Notes under the pieces: model-generated | What the model saw: only the letters and a program-made list of their open reading frames with translations | Told to the model about the DNA's origin: nothing | Database searches by the model: none | DNA from: a virus | Lineage: Duplodnaviria > Heunggongvirae > Uroviricota > Caudoviricetes | Virus record (IMG/VR): IMGVR_UViG_2585427784_000001 | Reading direction: 5' to 3' (one strand) | DNA length: 16,129 bases | In this document: positions 1-8,600 of the stretch, one piece after another | Numbering within the stretch: position 1 is the first letter of the stretch | Layout of the letters: each line of letters begins with the position of its first letter | Translations under genes and position numbers: made by a program

Positions 1-281
1 AGAGCCGTTTTCACCGTGCCATCCGATTTGATATCACCAAACGGATTCTTGCGGCTTAACAGCAGCGCACGAAGCGCGGTAAGCAACTGGTCGTGCCGCG
101 CCTTCTCCAGGCTGGCACCGGATGCCTCCACCACGCTGCAGAGTTCTTCCTGCAACATATCAAAGTAGTCATCATCCAGATCGGTGGCAGGTGTGCCGGT
201 CTGGGGGTTACCACGAGTAAAACCGTTCTTACCCGCGCCGAACTTATCCTTCTGCGCGGTTTTAGTGTCTATGCGATGCAT
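1..281 (-). CDS. Phage tail fibre protein, N-terminal conserved domain (partial; continues beyond window start)
   Basis: Minus-strand frame opens with ATG at 281..279, preceded by GGAG about 8 nt upstream and a stop two codons upstream. My translation is [74 protein letters not shown]..., which resembles the N-terminal domain of Mu S-type tail fibres as I recall it. The frame runs off the window edge. Confidence 0.5.
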
Positions 282-333
282 GGATTACTCCGGATATTTA
301 AAAATTACGTAGGTATGCGACGGGCAGAGTTTG

Positions 334-879
334 TTAAGCACACACTCGACAACGGTGTCGCCCCATACCGTCACTGGCAAGCTTGTGACGCCCGTACTTA
401 CTGGTAATGACGGATTTCAGTTTGCGCAGTACATACGCGCTGGTATGCAGAGTCTCACTGTCTAGGTAGCTGTTATCCGCAACCCCGTAAGCGTTTTTCC
501 TGTACGTGGTGACATCACGCTGAATGCGCAGTACCCCGCTTTCGACATACGCCGTTGCCACGCCATGAGACAGCAGGGTCTGTTGTTCGGTCATCGTGAA
601 CCGTTTCCCCTTCGGCGCAGGCAGCATACCCACCAGCTCACCGGTCTGCGTGGGACGTGCCGGATCGTTGCGAATAAACACCGCTGCGCGGGCGGTACGG
701 CTTGCCGCCAGTTCGTCGGCAGGCGTCTGGGGCTCTTTTTCGTACCCCGCCAGGGTAATGTGCTGCTGGTTAAACTGGTCACCTGCGGTCACCAGTTCTG
801 ACAGCGTGCCGATCTTTGCCGTATACACATGACCATACAGCTGACGCGCATAGCTCCAGCGACCGCTGGTATCGTTCAT
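334..879 (-). CDS. Phage structural (tail/baseplate-like) protein, probably a truncated remnant
   Basis: 181-aa ORF in the track, immediately upstream of and co-oriented with the tail-fibre gene. It is bounded by an in-frame stop only a few codons upstream of its first Met, and 880..1205 has no intact partner gene, so it is probably a fragment. The family assignment is a weak impression. Confidence 0.35.
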
Positions 880-1205
880 CTCGGTCAGGGTCAGGCACTG
901 ACCGCCCTTTAACAGGTTTCACAAACATGAAGATTCTCAGGAAGGAAGGGTTATTTCGGTGTGATGTTCGATATCGCCGTCAGGCCCGTTAACCGCGGGA
1001 AAATTTCCGAAGAAGACACCACCGAAACGCCGATGTATGTCAATCGCGGTGGTCGCCTGACTATTCTGCAGGAAGACCAGGGACAATTACTGACTCTTGC
1101 CGGTGAACCTGACGGAAAACTCCGCGCAGCAGGTCATTAATATCGTTCTTAATTAACTGATTATTTATCTCATCACTGAATATCTTTATATAGTGAGGAC
1201 TTATT

Positions 1206-2030
1206 ATGTCTCAGAACTTAGACGCAACCGCAATTAATCAAATCCATGCCCTTATTTCTGCTCAGGGTGTTAATGAAATTATCAGTAAGATTGGTGCCGA
1301 TGCTGTGGCATTGCCTGAGAATTTCCGCATTCATGATCTGGAAAAATTTAATTTAAATCGCTTCCGTTTCCGTGGTGCGCTTTCCACTGCCAGCATCGAT
1401 GACTTTACCCGTTATTCTAAAGATCTTGCAGATGAAGGCACCCGCTGCTTTATCGATGCTGATAATATGCGTGCCGTCAGTGTGCTTAACCTGGGTACTA
1501 TTGATGAACCAGGTCACGCAGATAACACCGCCACTCTCAAACTGAAAAAGACAGCACCGTTCTCTGCTCTGTTGTCTGTTAATGGCGAGCGTAACTCCCA
1601 GAAATCACTGGCAGAATGGATTGAAGACTGGGCCGACTACCTTGTGGGCTTTGATGCTAATGGTGACACCATTCAGGCAACAAAAGCGGCTGCGGCGGTC
1701 CGTAAAATCACGATTGAAGCAAACCAGACCGCTGATTTTGAAGATAATGACTTCAGCGGCAAACGCTCCCTGATGGAGTCTGTCGAAGCGAAGACCAAAG
1801 ACATTATGCCAGTGGCATTTGAATTTAAATGCATTCCGTTTGAAGGTCTGAAAGAACGTCCGTTTAAATTACGCCTCAGCATTATCACTGGCGATCGTCC
1901 GGTACTGGTTCTGCGCATTATTCAGCTGGAGGCGGTGCAGGAAGAAATGGCTAACGAATTTCGTGATCTGCTTGTTGAGAAATTCAAGGACAGCAAAGTA
2001 GAAACCTTTATTGGTACTTTCACCGCCTGA
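1206..2030 (+). CDS. yfdQ: YfdQ-like prophage protein (DUF2303-type), 274 aa
   Basis: Intact 274-aa ORF with GAGGA 7 nt upstream of the ATG. Length and N-terminus match my recollection of KplE1/CPS-53 YfdQ. It is followed by the HD-domain gene in the same order as yfdQ-yfdR. Confidence 0.8.
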
Positions 2031-2040
2031 TTTCATTACT

Positions 2041-2066
2041 GCAAATGCCCCTGCGGGGGCATTTAT
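2041..2066 (+). terminator. Weak hairpin (GCCCC-TGCG-GGGGC) followed by ATTT, downstream of the yfdQ-like gene
   Basis: Inverted repeat read directly in the sequence. The T-run is short, so it may be an attenuator or a stability element rather than a full terminator. Confidence 0.3.
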
Positions 2067-2157
2067 GGAAACGTAATTTACTCAATAATCGCCGGATGGT
2101 GAGGGATTCTTTTTACCAGAATTCAGCGCGGTGCAGCGCATATAAGTGGAGAACAAA

Positions 2158-2694
2158 ATGTCATTTATTAAAACTTTTTCCGGGAAGCATTTTTATTATG
2201 ACAGGATAAATAAAGACGACATCGATATTAACGATATCGCGGTTTCCCTTTCAAATATCTGTCGCTTTGCCGGTCATCTTTCGCACTTCTACAGCGTCGC
2301 CCAACATGCGGTTCTTTGCAGCCAGCTGGTGCCGCAGGAATTTGCTTTTGAAGCGTTAATGCATGATGCAACAGAAGCGTATTGCCAGGACATCCCCGCA
2401 CCACTGAAACGACTTCTTCCTGACTATAAACGGATGGAAGAAAAAATAGACGCCGTAATCCGTGAGAAATACGGGTTACCTCCTGTTATGAGCACGCCAG
2501 TGAAATATGCCGATCTCATCATGCTGGCAACCGAACGCCGCGATCTCGGGCTTGATGATGGCTCTTTCTGGCCTGTGCTGGAAGGTATCCCGGCAACAGA
2601 GATGTTCAACGTGATTCCACTGGCTCCAGGCCATGCCTACGGGATGTTTATGGAACGCTTTAACGAATTATCGGAGTTACGCAAATGCGCATGA
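2158..2694 (+). CDS. yfdR: HD-domain phosphohydrolase, YfdR-like 5'-deoxynucleotidase
   Basis: ORF track gives 2146..2694. The ATG at 2158 has GGAG 6 nt upstream and yields 178 aa. His...HD motif present (SVAQHAV ... ALMHDATEAY). Its stop overlaps the next start (ATGCGCATGA). Confidence 0.85.
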   Translation: MSFIKTFSGKHFYYDRINKDDIDINDIAVSLSNICRFAGHLSHFYSVAQHAVLCSQLVPQEFAFEALMHDATEAYCQDIPAPLKRLLPDYKRMEEKIDAVIREKYGLPPVMSTPVKYADLIMLATERRDLGLDDGSFWPVLEGIPATEMFNVIPLAPGHAYGMFMERFNELSELRKCA

Positions 2695-3047
2695 ATGTTT
2701 TCGAAATGGAAGGGTTTCTTCGCGGGAAATGTGTACCGCGAGATCTGAAAGTGAACGAAACAAATGCTGAGTACCTGGTACGTAAATTCGACGCGCTTGA
2801 AGCTAAATGTGCGGCACTGGAAAGCAAAATAATACCAGTGTCAGCTGAACTGCCACCAGCAAATGAAAGTGTTCTGTTATTTGATGCTAACGGAGAAGGC
2901 TGGCTGATTGGCTGGCGTTCTCTCTGGTACACCTGGGGACAAAAAGAAACCGGAGAATGGCAGTGGACATTTCAGGTCGGGGACCTTGAAAACGTCAATA
3001 TCACTCACTGGGCAGTAATGCCGAAAGCACCAGAGACTAAGAAATGA
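2685..3047 (+). CDS. yfdS: YfdS-like prophage protein, 120 aa
   Basis: 120-aa ORF translationally coupled to the upstream gene (10-nt overlap) and to the downstream one (ATGA overlap at 3044..3047). Length matches my recollection of YfdS. Confidence 0.7.
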   Translation: MRMNVFEMEGFLRGKCVPRDLKVNETNAEYLVRKFDALEAKCAALESKIIPVSAELPPANESVLLFDANGEGWLIGWRSLWYTWGQKETGEWQWTFQVGDLENVNITHWAVMPKAPETKK

Positions 3048-3259
3048 GCGTGATAAAAACTCATACAGGAATTGTTATCACCCGAGACGGTGAAAAGCGG
3101 ATGAAATTACATTCCACTGAAACGTCCTGGGTTGCCGGACGTTGTGAATCCTACGACAAAAAGACTGGTTACCGTTGGGGGGCACCTAACATGCGTCGCC
3201 GTCTGCTACTGGACAGCATCAGGCCAATAAAACAGGTAGCAACCAGGGAACAAAATTAA
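3044..3259 (+). CDS. Small prophage early-region protein (71 aa), hypothetical
   Basis: ATGA start/stop overlap with the preceding gene and same-strand operon context. No recognisable motif. Confidence 0.55.
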   Translation: MSVIKTHTGIVITRDGEKRMKLHSTETSWVAGRCESYDKKTGYRWGAPNMRRRLLLDSIRPIKQVATREQN

Positions 3260-3318
3260 TTATCAGGACTGGAATTTGATATTACTGCCCGTGTGCAGCG
3301 GGCTAAGTGGAGAAACAT

Positions 3319-3525
3319 ATGCTGAACCTCGATTGTGTTCCAATCTCAACTTATTGCAAAGAAACTGGCGAAACTCCTGAAGCAATAAACAAACGTGTAC
3401 AGCGCGGTGTTTGGCGTGAAGGTGTTCAGGTTTTAAAGGTTGAAGGCGTTAAGGAGAGGTGGATTGATCTTAGTGAGGTTGCAAAATGGGCCAGACAAAA
3501 CTGCTCAAACTACCGCGCGGCGTAA
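3319..3525 (+). CDS. Excisionase-like (Xis/AlpA-type winged-helix) DNA-binding protein
   Basis: Track ORF 3307..3525 begins at a GTG. The ATG at 3319 has GGAG 6 nt upstream. Small basic protein whose 3' end overlaps the integrase start by 40 nt, as in lambdoid xis-int pairs. The sequence (ETGETPEAINKRVQRG ... KVEGVKERWIDLSEVAKWA) fits the excisionase pattern. Confidence 0.55.
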   Translation: MLNLDCVPISTYCKETGETPEAINKRVQRGVWREGVQVLKVEGVKERWIDLSEVAKWARQNCSNYRAA

Positions 3526-4658
3526 CAATCAGGAAACACCGCCAGGGCGAAACGATCAATATAACTTTCACCTACAAAGGAGTTAAATGTCGTGAGCCTC
3601 TTTCCAATCTGGAAGTAATACCAAAGAACATAAAATACGCCGAGCGCACACTCGGCGAAATTCATAATAAGATCGAAAGGGGAACATTCATTTATGCGGA
3701 ATATTTTCCCCGTTCTGCTCGTTTGAAAATTTTTGGTAATGCTGCTGCAGGCAAAACGGTAAAAATGTACCTGGACGAATACCTTGAAATCTGCGAAACG
3801 AGAAAACTTTCACCCTCTACGATTGGTGGTTATAAAAAATGCCGTAGTGCGTTAGCCTCACTCCACATTTGCCCTGCAAGTGAATTAACACCAGCAATCC
3901 TGAAAGCGTGGATTCAAAGCCAGAAAACGACCTTAAAAACAATTCGCAACCAGTTATCTTTCCTGCGGTCAGCACTTGATGAAGCCGTAACCGATGGGGT
4001 ACTTCAAATTAACCCCGTATCGTTGGTAACTGCTTCGCGCTACCAAAGTGATAAGTCAGAAGCAGAAAGCAGCTACGTGGTTGATCCGCTATCACCAGCA
4101 GAAGTTGATGCATTACTAGCAGCAGCCGGAAACAAACAATGGGAAAATCTGTTCCGGTTCGCTATACATACAGGCCTGCGTAGTTCTGAATTATGTGCCC
4201 TTCGATGGCGTGATATCGACTTTGTTGGAAAAACTGCCCATGTCCAGAGCGCAAGTGTTGTCGGTGTTATCAAAGGGACAAAGACAAAAGCAGGTACTCG
4301 GAAAGTTGAACTGACAGAAGAGGCAATGTTGGCGCTGATAAATCAGAAGCCATTTACATTCATGAAGGATGCTACTGTCTTTGAAGATCCAAAGACCAAT
4401 AAGCCTTGGGCAAGTGCTGATGCAATTAGGAAAAAAGCATGGGTGCCAACATTGCGAAAAGCAAGTATTCGTTACAGAAACCCATATCAAACCAGGCATA
4501 CATTCGCCCCCAGCCATATCAGCCGAGGAGCAAACCTGTTTTGGCTTGCAGCTCAAATGGGGCATAAAGGGCCGGAGATGCTTTTCAGGCACTATGGTTC
4601 GTATCTTAAAGAGTATGATAACTTTACATCGATAAATCATTTGCATAATCATAATTAA
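3486..4658 (+). CDS. Tyrosine site-specific recombinase (phage integrase) with N-terminal arm-binding region
   Basis: 390-aa ORF. Catalytic-domain signatures are visible: box I Arg (HTGLRSSEL), box II (RHTFAPSHISRG ... LAAQMGHKGPEMLFRHYGSYL) with the presumptive Tyr nucleophile. No frameshifts seen. Confidence 0.9.
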   Translation: MGQTKLLKLPRGVTIRKHRQGETINITFTYKGVKCREPLSNLEVIPKNIKYAERTLGEIHNKIERGTFIYAEYFPRSARLKIFGNAAAGKTVKMYLDEYLEICETRKLSPSTIGGYKKCRSALASLHICPASELTPAILKAWIQSQKTTLKTIRNQLSFLRSALDEAVTDGVLQINPVSLVTASRYQSDKSEAESSYVVDPLSPAEVDALLAAAGNKQWENLFRFAIHTGLRSSELCALRWRDIDFVGKTAHVQSASVVGVIKGTKTKAGTRKVELTEEAMLALINQKPFTFMKDATVFEDPKTNKPWASADAIRKKAWVPTLRKASIRYRNPYQTRHTFAPSHISRGANLFWLAAQMGHKGPEMLFRHYGSYLKEYDNFTSINHLHNHN

Positions 4659-4666
4659 TATTTAAT

Positions 4667-4694
4667 AATCCCCGCATTTTTAAAATCGGGGATT
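4667..4694 (+). promoter_or_regulatory. 8-bp stem hairpin (AATCCCCG / CGGGGATT, 12-nt loop) between integrase stop and the next start; its 3' arm contains the GGGGA Shine-Dalgarno
   Basis: Perfect inverted repeat read directly. Not followed by a real T-run, so it looks more like a translational or stability element than an intrinsic terminator. Confidence 0.3.
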
Positions 4695-4699
4695 TAAAG

Positions 4700-5479
4700 T
4701 TGATTACAATTACATTCGACAAACTAATCACCTACATATCTTCAGTTGGTACTTTCATTTCAGCAATTGCTGCATTATATGCAATATGGTTAACGATATT
4801 TCAAAGAAGGCTCTCTTATAAACCCAATTTAGTGATAGACACTTTAAATATCAAGATGAATGTTAACGATTTCAACGGTTTTCATGTTGATATCTTACAA
4901 GCCCCTACGCTTCCACAAACAAAATTTTCAAACATAGGATTGGGGGCGGCAATTTCACTTAGATATCATTGGGATTTTAATTATAAAAAAAACATAAATC
5001 TATACTTAGAGTTGTTTTCGAAAAAATTCAAAAAAGAAGATAAATCTTTTACAACCGACTCCCAGTATGGAATGTTCAAAATAATAAAAGAAAGAAAAGT
5101 ATATATGTACAATACTTTATCGACACCTTACGATATTGATTTTTCGTTACCATATAGTATAGATAAGAAGTCAAAAAACATTTTTGTACCAACCGCGGCA
5201 ATTGATATTCTATTGAATATAGCATATCTTTCACATAGACTTAAATTAGTCGGTTCTTCATCATTCACTGGTCCAAAATTAATTATTGAATATCAAGATA
5301 TAGAGGGTAAAACTAAAAAAGTCACTTGGCAAACAAAATTGGAACGTAGAGTGGCACGTTTCAGTGGTGATAATATGGAGGCAGATTTTGCACTACGGTT
5401 TACACCTGTACCAGAGAAATGGACTACAAAAGGTCTAGAGAAGATACGCAAAAGCGCCGCAAACGCCATGTTCAGATAA
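4700..5479 (+). CDS. Hypothetical membrane-anchored protein (259 aa), AT-rich orphan cargo gene
   Basis: ORF with TTG start and GGGGA 7 nt upstream. One predicted N-terminal TM helix (TYISSVGTFISAIAALYAIWLTIF) followed by a Lys/Asn/Ile-rich soluble part. Visibly far more AT-rich than the flanking integrase and autotransporter. No motif I recognise. Confidence 0.65.
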   Translation: MITITFDKLITYISSVGTFISAIAALYAIWLTIFQRRLSYKPNLVIDTLNIKMNVNDFNGFHVDILQAPTLPQTKFSNIGLGAAISLRYHWDFNYKKNINLYLELFSKKFKKEDKSFTTDSQYGMFKIIKERKVYMYNTLSTPYDIDFSLPYSIDKKSKNIFVPTAAIDILLNIAYLSHRLKLVGSSSFTGPKLIIEYQDIEGKTKKVTWQTKLERRVARFSGDNMEADFALRFTPVPEKWTTKGLEKIRKSAANAMFR

Positions 5480-5506
5480 ATATATAATTAAAACAACAGG
5501 TTAATA

Positions 5507-5537
5507 TTTTTCAGACACGGGTTCAACTCCCGCCAGC
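5507..5537 (+). other. attR-like core: imperfect partial duplicate of the tmRNA (ssrA) 3' end
   Basis: tttcagacacgggttcaactcccgccagc matches my recollection of the ssrA 3' end (TTTCGGACGCGGGTTCAACTCCCGCCAGC) with 2 mismatches. It then diverges into a perfect 14-nt palindrome ccaatcatgattgg (5537..5550). It lies 28 nt after the cargo-gene stop. Confidence 0.6.
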
Positions 5538-5666
5538 CAATCATGATTGGACGGTGTAAGGACAACACCAACAAAAACAGGAAGTTAGAAGTCTCAGCAA
5601 AACACCGACCAGACGGTGAGGAGACATAAAAGGATACGCAAAGGAGCCGCGGCTCCTGGTAACATG

Positions 5667-5694
5667 AAAGCCCACAGATGTGGGCTTTTTCGTT
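5667..5694 (+). terminator. Rho-independent terminator (GCCCACA...TGTGGGC + TTTTT)
   Basis: GC-rich hairpin followed by a T5 run on the plus strand. It abuts the stop codon of the convergent autotransporter gene at 5700, so it may work in both directions, though the minus-strand side lacks a U-run. Confidence 0.6.
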
Positions 5695-5699
5695 GATGG

Positions 5700-8600
5700 T
5701 CAGAACGACCAGTTCATACCAGCTACCGCGTTCCACGGGGATTCCACACCGGCACTATGGCTATACCCCACCCCAAGATGCCCGCTTAACGTACTGCTGA
5801 ATGAGGCTTTAATACCTGCCTGGTATATTCCACGTCTGCCCGACAAATAATTGACGAAATTACCGTCACTATTCACTTTCACCCGGTTATCATCGACAAA
5901 TTCTTTGCGCACAGCCGCCTTCAGCCACGGCTCAACTTCCATACCGTTCCCCAGACGCATGTTGTAACTCAGCGTTGCGCCCAGTTCACGATATATACTG
6001 CGGGTATCGACTGATTTCGATTTCATGCCATTGGATAAATGATATTCGGGGTTATCAGCGGTGAACCCCGTTAACGATGCATACGGCGTCAGGTTCCAGT
6101 TACCATCGGTAAATCGCATCCCGGTTTCAATGTGACCGCCCAGCCCGTTGCTGTGGTAACTGCCATTGGCGGCTCCACCGCTGCTCATTTTACCTGCTAC
6201 GTTACTTTTAAAACGGTTCAGCTTCACGACACCGTCCAGATAGAAACCACTTTCATGTTCCCAACTGGCATAGCCGCCCAGAGAATAACTGCCCACACTG
6301 CCATGTCCTCCGCGATCAAAACCGATATGTGAATGGGAATAGCCCATAAAAGCGCCTAGCGTGGTAATTCCTTCAGGAATATCATTACGGCTGTCGATCC
6401 CCACTGTCATTCCGGTCAGCGTCTGCTCAAACCCGGCACCCGCATCGGTGGTGACATTATTACGGGTGTTATACCTCGCCCCCCAGACATTATTGTTGTG
6501 TGGACTCGCTTTCATTATGTTCAACCGCTCGCGAATACTGTTTAGCTCAGCATCAAATACCAACGGTAATGTTGCTGCCATATTGAGTACGGCTGCCGTA
6601 GAAGGCGTAATGCGTTTCTCCGGAACGGGTGTCGGCGTTGGATCGGGAGTAGGGTCTGGTTTTGGATTTGGGTCTGGCTTTGGATCGGGTTTTGGGTCTG
6701 GCTTTGGATTTGGGATGGGGTCCGGGTTGGGTTTGACATCATTGGTCAGGTTCCAGTTGCTGTTGCCGTCACTTTTCAGGACATACTCATAGGTCCCAAG
6801 ATCAACGAAACCGCCGGTATTGCCCAGCGTAAACGAAGCATCCCCTCCCCCTGTTTTCACCAGCGTCATCGCGTCGTCAGACTGTGGGCTGACGCCGGTA
6901 TCCTGAACAAAGATTTTAAAATTACCAGTGGCGTTGTTGTTGACGACCAGTTGATCGCCCCGGGAGCCTGCAACGTTGGTATGCAGGTAGAAATTACCGC
7001 TACCGGAAAGTTCATTGGTTGTCAGCGTATTGTAGATACCGTTAGTTGTGGCAGGCGCTGCTGTTTGTGCTGACAAATAAACATCACCGTCGTTGAGTAG
7101 CAAACTGTTTACTCTATATTCGCAGTTGCTGGTACCTGCACAGGAATTATTGCTGTTAAGCCAGACACTGCCCCGGCTGGCAGCCGTCAGGTCGGCAAGC
7201 GTGGTATCGACGCCATTTCCCAGAGTCAATGTCGCGCTATCGGTAATCCGGACCGCCCCTTCGAGTTTAACTGGCGTAACATTATCCCGTGGCGTCATTA
7301 ACGACAGGCTTCCTGTCGCGCCACTGACCGATGCATCCGCCAGCGTACCTGCGTAGACGATTGCCGTACCGCCAGCGACCTGGAGATCTTCTGCCCGGGC
7401 CAGAGCCTGAAACTCATCTTTTGACCGCCCAAGGGTATATTGCCCGCCAGAGTTAACCTTTGTGGCGGAGTCCTGACCCAGGTTTTGCATTGCCCCACCC
7501 TTGCCAACCGTGGAGTCGCGAGCTTCGGTACCTGCTAATACCAATAAATTACCGCCATTTTCCAGCAACATATTGGTCGCTAAATTGCCGGAAATGGAAA
7601 AAGTACCGTACTGGTGAGTACCGCTGATTTCAATACCGTTAGCCGTGCTCGTCTGGAGAGCGGCACCGCTGTTCTGGACGATATCTGTCGCTTTGCCATT
7701 ATCGTTGACTGTCAGCGTACCGCCTTCATTGATCTTTGTTTTTATTGCCTCTCCGTTAGCTGAAACTGTTTGTATTCCGCCGTCGTTAATTGTTGTCTCA
7801 TTCGCCACACCCTCGACAATTTGTTCACCGCCGGTGAGCGTCGTGCCTGTCGCAGTGGCTTTTGTTTTGACGATCTCCCGTCCGCCCATATTGACCTGTG
7901 TTTTGTCAGAAGAGGTGTCTGACTCCACGGTTAACACGCCGCCATTTGCCAGCAGGATATTGTTCGCCGCACCCTGCTCGATGCTGAACGCGACGCCATC
8001 CGCGCGTGTTCCTGTGACCCGCGTCGCCCTGGTGGTTGCAACCAAAGCGCCCTGGCTACTCTGCTGTATCCCCGTTGCGCTGCCTTTCTCCCGCACATCG
8101 AGTGTGCCGCCGTCATTAAGCACCGAGTTTTCAGCCAGACCGCCCTCATTAACTACCTGTGAACCCCCATTAATAATGGAACCTTCCGCTGTCCCGTTTG
8201 CCATAATTTGTTGTAGGCCAGAGACGATATCGGTATTGATTGCCTTACCATAATTCTGAACGGTTTGCGTGCCACCATTGATGTGTGTTTTCTCTGTTGA
8301 CCCACCATCAACAATTTGTTCACCACTTTCGATATTTGCTTCAGTGGCTAAACCATATACCGTTTGCTTGCCACCTTTGATATTTGCTTTATCAGAAGTG
8401 GCACTGGCATATATTGTTTGGGTGCCAGCACTATTGAGTACAGTGCCAACATCTTTTCCATAAACATCCATTTTGCCGTTGGCATTAATAATCGTGTCAA
8501 CTGCGCGGGAACCAGTGACGACTGTTAATGAGCCAGCGTTTTCCAGCACTACATTTTTAGCTTCTGAATTCCTGATGTAGAAAGCATCACCATAACTGTT

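Follow-up and report, generated by a model that had tools for sequence, protein, structure and literature searches.

Does the excisionase–integrase (xis–int) module of the viral record IMGVR_UViG_2585427784_000001 mark the end of a prophage inserted into ssrA, the gene for transfer-messenger RNA (tmRNA), and can this prophage still leave its host? The record, from IMG/VR, is assigned to the Caudoviricetes and consists of 16,129 nucleotides (nt) of one strand; this whole stretch is referred to here as the window. ssrA is a classic integration hotspot. A first-pass annotation, made from the letters of the window without database searches, placed a prophage or island boundary at ssrA. Taken with the full account given below, window positions 1–5537 are very probably the right part of a defective prophage in ssrA, and positions 5509–5699 are its right attachment junction (attR).

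The junction contains a 29-nt segment (5509–5537, + strand) that matches the 3' end of the E. coli tmRNA with two mismatches and lies 851 bp 3' of int. This agrees with the 30-nt match with two mismatches, 850 bp past int, reported in the first-pass annotation. Both mismatches fall within positions 5509–5517, which form part of the phage P arm. The match is unique within the window, and none of 200 shuffled sequences matched. The window is without a tmRNA gene in tRNA/tmRNA and Rfam scans. When Rfam is run over the whole window, the tmRNA model scores only a 15-nt piece (12.9 bits, E = 0.12), far under threshold. On the Rfam result alone, the segment could be a chance match in a region that is no attachment site, an outcome the annotation itself had named as a possible refutation. 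The probability of this is negligible: the shuffles give no match, and the segment is homologous to the attachment sites of relatives and of the free phage LLS and is followed by about 160 nt of native ssrA flank.

The annotation had also proposed a comparison with genomes that lack the island. Two artificial empty sites were built by joining ssrA directly to the flank found right of the repeat. At least 80% of the construct is covered in 709 genomes with ST131-type (B2) flanks and in 1,385 genomes with K-12-type flanks. In real empty sites ssrA ends ...CGGGTTCAACTCCCGCCAGCTCCACCA; ATCATGATTGGACGG... comes directly after it, then a stretch of about 150 nt that closes with a terminator, and ypjA adjoins ssrA directly. 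Right of position 5537 the window matches this native ssrA 3' flank (B', 5538–5699, + strand) base for base, up to the terminator beside ypjA. Over the aligned part, the flank is identical to that of the empty-site strain 08-00022, and window positions 5541–5699 are identical to the K-12 sequence from the psaA point to ypjA. Similarity to the ssrA locus thus spans about 190 nt (5509–5699). The 29-nt match and a right flank identical to the empty-site and K-12 flanks support an attR-type junction of an element inserted in ssrA, as the annotation had proposed.

Only two differences separate the window from the native site. The first is phage DNA left of position 5518, and the second is the absence of TCCAC between positions 5537 and 5538. 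In the alignment with native empty sites, TCCAC is present in the native ...CGCCAGCTCCACCAATCATGATTGG... and absent from the window, where positions 5531–5539 read CGCCAGCCA, with CGCCAGC directly followed by CA. The missing TCCAC belongs to the acceptor/CCA end of the tmRNA. A perfect 14-nt palindrome, CCAATCATGATTGG (5537–5550, unstranded), was correctly described in the first-pass annotation. The tmRNA-like segment does not diverge into it, as had been stated; instead, the segment is followed by the 5-nt gap and then by native flank that includes the palindrome. The palindrome is itself native and overlaps the CCA end of ssrA.

The prophage/chromosome boundary can be placed to within 20 bp. 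The prophage of E. coli strain T43 matches window positions 984–5537 at 99.89% identity, and the match ends exactly after CGCCAGC. Past this point T43 reads TCCACCAAAATTCTCC..., the CP4-57-type sequence that follows ssrA in K-12. Since the T43 match ends at 5537, the DNA right of 5537 comes from the target and not from the phage. In the ST131 lysogen, the left attachment junction (attL) has the phage-type ATCATG after the CCA end, and attR keeps AATAATG, as in empty B2 sites. In the P arms of this integrase family (window/ST131/T43, ECONIH4, LLS and two kinds of metagenome contig, L013-type and L039), similarity to ssrA is lost shortly before the T stem. By comparison, strand exchange therefore lies inside CGGGTTCAACTCCCGCCAGC (5518–5537, + strand), within the tmRNA T-arm; the T43 and ST131 data bracket this interval independently. 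Integrases that target tRNA genes have a known sublocation habit. By analogy with them, we infer that strand exchange takes place at the 7-nt T loop (5522–5528), between the inverted T-stem halves, with TTCAACT as the predicted overlap.

A perfect 14-bp palindrome would also make a natural recombinase core. If strand exchange took place there or further right, the whole tmRNA-like piece, gap included, would be phage P arm, and ssrA would be whole again after excision. L013-type metagenome contigs, which carry the same integrase family, have the gap and the ATCATG palindrome before a B2-type flank, as if the phage had brought both. This arrangement is very unlikely in the window. The 99.89% identical phage of T43 has TCCACCAAAATT... 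after CGCCAGC, which places the DNA right of 5537 in the target, and in ST131 the attR palindrome is of the chromosomal variant and the attL palindrome of the phage variant. These T43 and ST131 comparisons led to the rejection of a crossover in the palindrome. Carriage of the gap by this phage was likewise rejected: the T43 copy has TCCACCA at attR. The predicted attachment site after excision (attB) would read ...CGCCAGCCAATCATG with a crossover left of 5538, and ...CGCCAGCTCCACCAATCATG with a crossover to the right.

Near-identical xis–int modules end complete prophages that start at ssrA in the strains THO-003 and T43, consistent with the boundary first proposed. Of 5,426 complete E. coli genomes, 396 (about 7%) carry the module. 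In ST131 THO-003, which has ST131-type (phylogroup B2) flanks, it ends a lambdoid prophage of about 45 kb that begins directly after ssrA. In T43 it ends a contractile-tail prophage of about 42 kb that also begins at ssrA, and in ECONIH4 the prophage follows another island as part of a tandem array. LLS (PQ299149), a free temperate phage, has xis, int and a cargo gene followed by the phage attachment site (attP), which consists of a mimic of the tmRNA 3' end and a homologue of the ssrA flank. Integration of LLS into ssrA has been deduced by comparison with a prophage, and IntA of CP4-57 is 17% identical to the LLS integrase (PMC12315714).

The gene xis (3319–3525, + strand) has an ATG start and encodes a 68-amino-acid (aa) excisionase (phrog_2917, 7.7e-44, full length) that matches no Pfam or NCBIfam model. 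The protein is 100% identical in relatives and is annotated as xis in phage phiNP; among LLS-type relatives its identity is 88–100%. The gene int (3486–4658, + strand) encodes a 390-aa tyrosine integrase of the LLS/phiNP family. The integrase has an N-terminal Arm-DNA-bind_2 domain (PF12167, 1.4e-21), a SAM-like core-binding domain (PF13102, 1.5e-4) and a Phage_integrase catalytic domain (PF00589, 3.6e-14), which is the lambda-type set. The two open reading frames (ORFs) overlap by 40 nt. The integrase of the window is 99.5% identical to that of T43 (2 of 390 residues differ), 99.2% to ST131, about 97% to ECONIH4 (96% in the family alignment and 97.7% over 384 aa), 91.5% to phiNP and 85.8% to LLS. 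Alignment to the Tn1549 integrase and within the family shows that the catalytic residues R232, K266, R337, H360 and Y370 are present. The first catalytic histidine is replaced by Tyr334 in all five family members, free phages included.

The overlap of xis with a 390-aa integrase stands as first described, and the catalytic residues just listed are present. The annotation missed two substitutions that are private to the window, G327S (nt 4464) and T342P (nt 4509), both at residues that are invariant in the four other proteins. Between positions 1007 and 5537 the window and T43 differ by just two bases, and both are non-synonymous in int. T342P lies in the helix of the Arg-His box, five residues past the catalytic R337 and beside R337-H338. 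It is plausible that the two changes impair the recombinase. Their restriction to int in the comparison with T43 suggests that selection on the integrase is relaxed or acts against it.

The prophage itself is a remnant. Compared with the intact prophages of GPEC1035 and T43, the window has three deletions (8,485, 834 and 19,424 bp; about 28.7 kb), and the surviving pieces are collinear with these relatives. The genes lost are those for baseplate, tape measure, tube, head, terminase, lysis, antiterminator, replication and immunity. Judged by this gene content, the remnant is unable to make particles, lyse, replicate or repress.

How the element would have entered ssrA can be described from the family as a whole. 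In this lambdoid family the order is early-left genes (yfdP, yfdQ and yfdR), xis, int, one variable cargo gene and attP. A lambda-style integrase would recombine the ssrA T-arm with a phage site that mimics the last ~30 nt of ssrA and ~150 nt of its 3' flank. Once the phage is integrated, its P' arm would supply a functional ssrA 3' end and terminator at attL, outside the window, and the displaced chromosomal end of ssrA would sit at attR. The predicted attL has ssrA ending ...CGGGTTCAACTCCCGCCAGCTCCACCAATCATGATTGG, then phage-type flank GTTAGCAG..., and is expected within roughly 8 kb to the left, by the example of T43.

The 5-nt gap lies right of the crossover bracket and is therefore on the chromosomal side; this placement is by comparison only, of T43 with the window and of the ST131 lysogen with its empty site. 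The chromosomal copy is without TCCAC, and therefore excision would probably disable the host tmRNA. Excision by integrase and excisionase would hand the lesion to ssrA. The gene would then be short of the CCA and of the acceptor stem's 3' half with its G-U pair, and trans-translation would cease in the cell. Such mutations, when placed in the E. coli tmRNA, abolish trans-translation (PMC10107115). In K-12, excision of CP4-57 with the loss of one T shifts ribosome rescue to ArfA/RF2 (PMC10107115), and the same logic has been demonstrated for CP4So in Shewanella (PMC5148205). Curing the remnant is thus predicted to give a tmRNA-defective strain that relies on ribosome rescue by ArfA/RF2. This would be a case of a prophage dismantled by deletions while the host stays dependent on the ssrA end that the phage supplied.

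The element may instead be a fully functional mobile island that still excises and reintegrates, and the first-pass annotation had taken the intact int and xis to mean that it may still be excisable. Both genes are full-length with all catalytic residues present, the excisionase is 100% identical to that of relatives, and the candidate P-arm motif and the core are intact. However, the early promoter and the immunity region are among the ~28.7 kb deleted. Over 4.5 kb only two bases differ from T43, and both alter int residues that do not vary among four relatives; one of these changes, T342P, falls in the helix of the Arg-His box. An ssrA restored by excision would carry the 5-nt lesion, reported as inactivating (PMC10107115), and attL lies outside the window. 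A functional module is therefore improbable, and it is doubtful that the element is still excisable.

The 5-nt lesion belongs to a class that other ssrA islands are known to have. Onodera et al. 2022 (PMC10107115, Table 1), citing Williams 2003, give CGCCAGC-----CA for Stm27X of S. Typhimurium LT2, Eco48X of E. coli RS218 and Oi108 of E. coli O157:H7 EDL933. All three have the same 5-nt loss at the distal repeat as the window (PMC10107115). Their integrases are reported as P4-type, CTX-phi-type or unclassified, and they are likened to the window by the tabulated lesion and not by sequence. A scan for CGCCAGCCAATCATGATTGGACGG found the junction CGCCAGC/CAATCATG in 34 metagenome contigs (L013–L046). 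These contigs have at least eight unrelated left arms (P4-like, other islands and this integrase family) and several right flanks. The lesion thus has a wide distribution and is not confined to this phage. An exact-pattern scan for the gap junction in GTDB species-representative genomes found none. P4-like arms with the 5-nt lesion beside the same flank as in the window exist (L020, L034 and L038). In the ECONIH4 tandem array, both the internal junction (L010 23560–23580) and the terminal attR (L003 22150–22180) read CGCCAGC/CAATCATG.

The most likely origin of the lesion is inheritance from a P4-like island that once lay downstream in tandem, as in T43, and was later excised. In this history, the phage would enter ssrA upstream of the P4-like island, the island would carry the gap at its own attR, and excision of the island would pass the gap to the attR of the phage. 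Random decay of a useless duplicate after integration in this lineage would require no earlier island. The displaced 3' end at attR is free of selection, and K-12 shows a different lesion (one T lost) in the same place, both of which agree with decay. Decay is nevertheless unlikely. The same junction recurs in the 34 metagenome contigs with their unrelated left arms and several right flanks, as well as in Salmonella LT2, E. coli RS218 and EDL933 (PMC10107115), and T43 has the same phage upstream of a P4-like island, with lesion-bearing P4-like arms known beside the same flank. A broader version of inheritance from an island, which we rate as speculative and not probable, is that the recurrent 5-nt and 1-nt lesions at distal repeats are not random decay but a transferable "lock" that was passed from a P4-like island to the lambdoid remnant. 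If this were true, a resident ssrA element would hold the sole good tmRNA 3' end and its loss would cost the host trans-translation. It would also provide a stepwise route to the permanent domestication of a prophage remnant, in which an excision event inside a tandem array hands over the lock as int loses its function.

Several observations weigh against the account of a defective, locked-in prophage in ssrA. The attL junction and the real ssrA, with the direct repeat of the same genome, lie outside the window, and the matching ssrA is shown in relatives only. Every catalytic residue of the integrase is kept, so the recombinase may remain active. The crossover bracket rests on comparison and not on mapped cleavage, and the T-loop position within the 20-bp bracket is a further step of interpretation. 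The double lesion in ECONIH4 is more than one simple event would account for, and it fits the proposed history only with an extra assumption. The lesion occurs beside several unrelated elements and flank types, which simple decay explains poorly. The arm-like motif described below occurs in the native flank too, and its role is that of a candidate only.

The window element is a decayed member of a common, already known family of ssrA-targeting prophages. LLS and the E. coli ssrA prophages of T43, THO-003 and ECONIH4 share with the window the order yfdP-yfdQ-yfdR...xis-int-cargo-attP/attR, as well as the mimic of the tmRNA T-arm followed by the flank homologue. Citrobacter phage phiNP has only the xis–int module in common with the window. 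Unlike the LLS-type relatives, the window has lost ~28.7 kb and its integrase carries G327S and T342P. Its attR has the 5-nt gap, whereas the ST131 attR is without a gap. Its tail module is contractile and of the T43 type, whereas LLS, ST131 and ECONIH4 have a lambda-like tail. As a discovery the element matters little: the site is a classic hotspot, roughly 7% of the complete E. coli genomes carry the integrase family, and the lesion is catalogued.

The closest K-12 counterpart, CP4-57, occupies the same ssrA–ypjA slot and has an identical flank right of the repeat. Its attR likewise holds a defective copy of the tmRNA end, and its excision inactivates the tmRNA (PMC10107115). K-12 annotates psaA, a 14-nt pseudogene, at the right end of CP4-57. 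The two elements are nonetheless different, as the annotation had stated. The P4-type IntA of CP4-57 is unrelated to the window integrase, and its cargo is different; a tblastn search with the window integrase and excisionase found no match in the CP4-57 locus, intA included. Judged by IntA and AlpA, the element falls outside the P4-like islands: there is no tblastn match in the CP4-57 locus, and the domain set differs. In CP4-57 the ssrA identity begins at CCGCCAGC, whereas in the window it begins at the T stem, and the attR lesion is one lost T in CP4-57 and five lost bases in the window.

The module also resembles that of lambda. Both have a heterobivalent integrase with arm, core and catalytic domains and a small excisionase gene upstream that overlaps int, and the window integrase has a weak match to lambda integrase structures. 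Unlike lambda, the phage inserts into an RNA gene and has to restore the 3' end of that gene. The attP of the window family lies downstream of int past a cargo gene and not beside int, and the first catalytic histidine is a tyrosine (Y334) throughout the family.

The native ssrA 3' flank (5538–5699) contains an arm-like repeat (5633–5654) and a terminator hairpin (5667–5690) that is shared with the convergent ypjA. The flank folds better than shuffled sequences (z = -3.4) and has several hairpins. The + strand ssrA/ypjA terminator was missed by the terminator scan, probably since an A/T extension of the stem uses the T run; folding shows the hairpin. The flank is ~85–90% identical to phage P' arms, and from this similarity the chromosomal flank and the P' arms appear to share ancestry. 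A further copy of the ssrA 3' flank (88% identical) occurs near the far end of the GPEC1035 prophage at prfC (L009 47342–47519), which has a different integrase. This copy looks like a relic P' arm of an ssrA-targeting ancestor.

A candidate pair of arm-type integrase sites, GATACGCAAAAGCGCCGCAAAC (5443–5464, + strand), lies in the P arm, inside the 3' end of the cargo ORF. It is directly repeated as GATACGCAAAGGAGCCGCGGCT at 5633–5654. Six P arms that are otherwise unrelated have similar tandem motifs, picked by eye and unscored, at ~40–90 bp upstream of the core.

The cargo gene (4700–5479, + strand; phrog_7259) occupies the slot between int and attP. The spacing of 850 bp between int and the repeat had been given correctly in the first-pass annotation, but the ORF that this stretch holds was overlooked. 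The gene encodes a 259-aa protein with an N-terminal membrane helix and has 32% G+C. The protein has no Pfam, PADLOC or NCBIfam match. The AlphaFold model (predicted local distance difference test, pLDDT, 81.7) shows the N-terminal membrane helix and alpha/beta modules, and no significant fold match was found in a structure search. The family comprises 21 homologue clusters with no Pfam domain, and those with a named source are all from Enterobacteriaceae. The same protein is in the slot in the window, ST131 and T43, and LLS has a distant homologue there (gene 31). In Enterobacter hormaechei a member of the family occupies this slot, and in Cedecea neteri one lies beside AbiTii and SymE genes. 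Elsewhere the slot contains DarT with a NADAR antitoxin (ECONIH4, L003 20705–22021) or an AAA ATPase (phiNP, L005 4855–6642), and the slot beside int in the GPEC1035 prophage contains a CHAT-domain protein (L009 8327–10459). Based on these contents, the int-adjacent slot looks like a swap site for defence-type genes, and the membrane-anchored 259-aa protein may be an undescribed phage-defence or exclusion gene.

At the left end of the window, positions 1–367 (- strand) are a fragment that covers the last part of ymfQ and the first part of a tail-fibre gene. This fragment has 100% matches to ymfQ/gp53-like tail-fibre regions in many E. coli prophages; it is collinear with the GPEC1035 prophage (L009 43184–42818) and 97.3% identical to the T43 ssrA prophage. 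The 8,485-bp deletion separates it from an internal fragment of a contractile-tail sheath gene (366–887, - strand), which is 99.8% identical to L009 34332–33811. The ORF at 334–879 has a Phage_sheath_1 match (5e-24) and corresponds to positions 245–417 of 493 in phrog_165. A fragment of the DUF2635 and tail-terminator genes (888–995, - strand; L009 32976–32870, 99.1%) is bounded by the 834-bp deletion on the left and the 19,424-bp deletion on the right.

The 19.4-kb deletion cuts yfdP, of which the 3' part remains (996–1140, + strand). Homology in the early region starts inside yfdP at ~984–1006; window position 984 corresponds to L003 17001, within yfdP at 16796–17158. The early-left operon (1206–3259, + strand) follows, in the same order as in relatives and identified by Pfam and PHROG. 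It consists of yfdQ (DUF2303; 1206–2030), a yfdR-like 5'-deoxynucleotidase gene (2158–2694), a gene for a DUF551 protein (2685–3047) and a gene for a small phage protein (3044–3259). The yfdQ–yfdR spacer (2022–2201) has a weak, probably chance match to Rfam STnc100 (20.6 bits, E = 0.77), under threshold.

The right two thirds of the window are collinear with E. coli K-12 downstream of CP4-57. The first chromosomal gene past the element is ypjA (5700–10409, - strand), an autotransporter adhesin gene taken from the ORF list and annotated in relatives and in K-12. The order past attR is ypjA, pinH and ypjCB remnants, ileY, a ygaQ pseudogene and an IS1 copy. The IS1 copy (15363–16129) breaks up the ygaQ-like alpha-amylase pseudogene and extends as far as the end of the window, where it may mark an assembly break. 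The only tRNA gene in the window is ileY, for tRNA-Ile(CAU) (13316–13391, - strand), which ARAGORN labels as Met; the ileY bases also give a spurious antisense Rfam match to "Plastid-ycf2".

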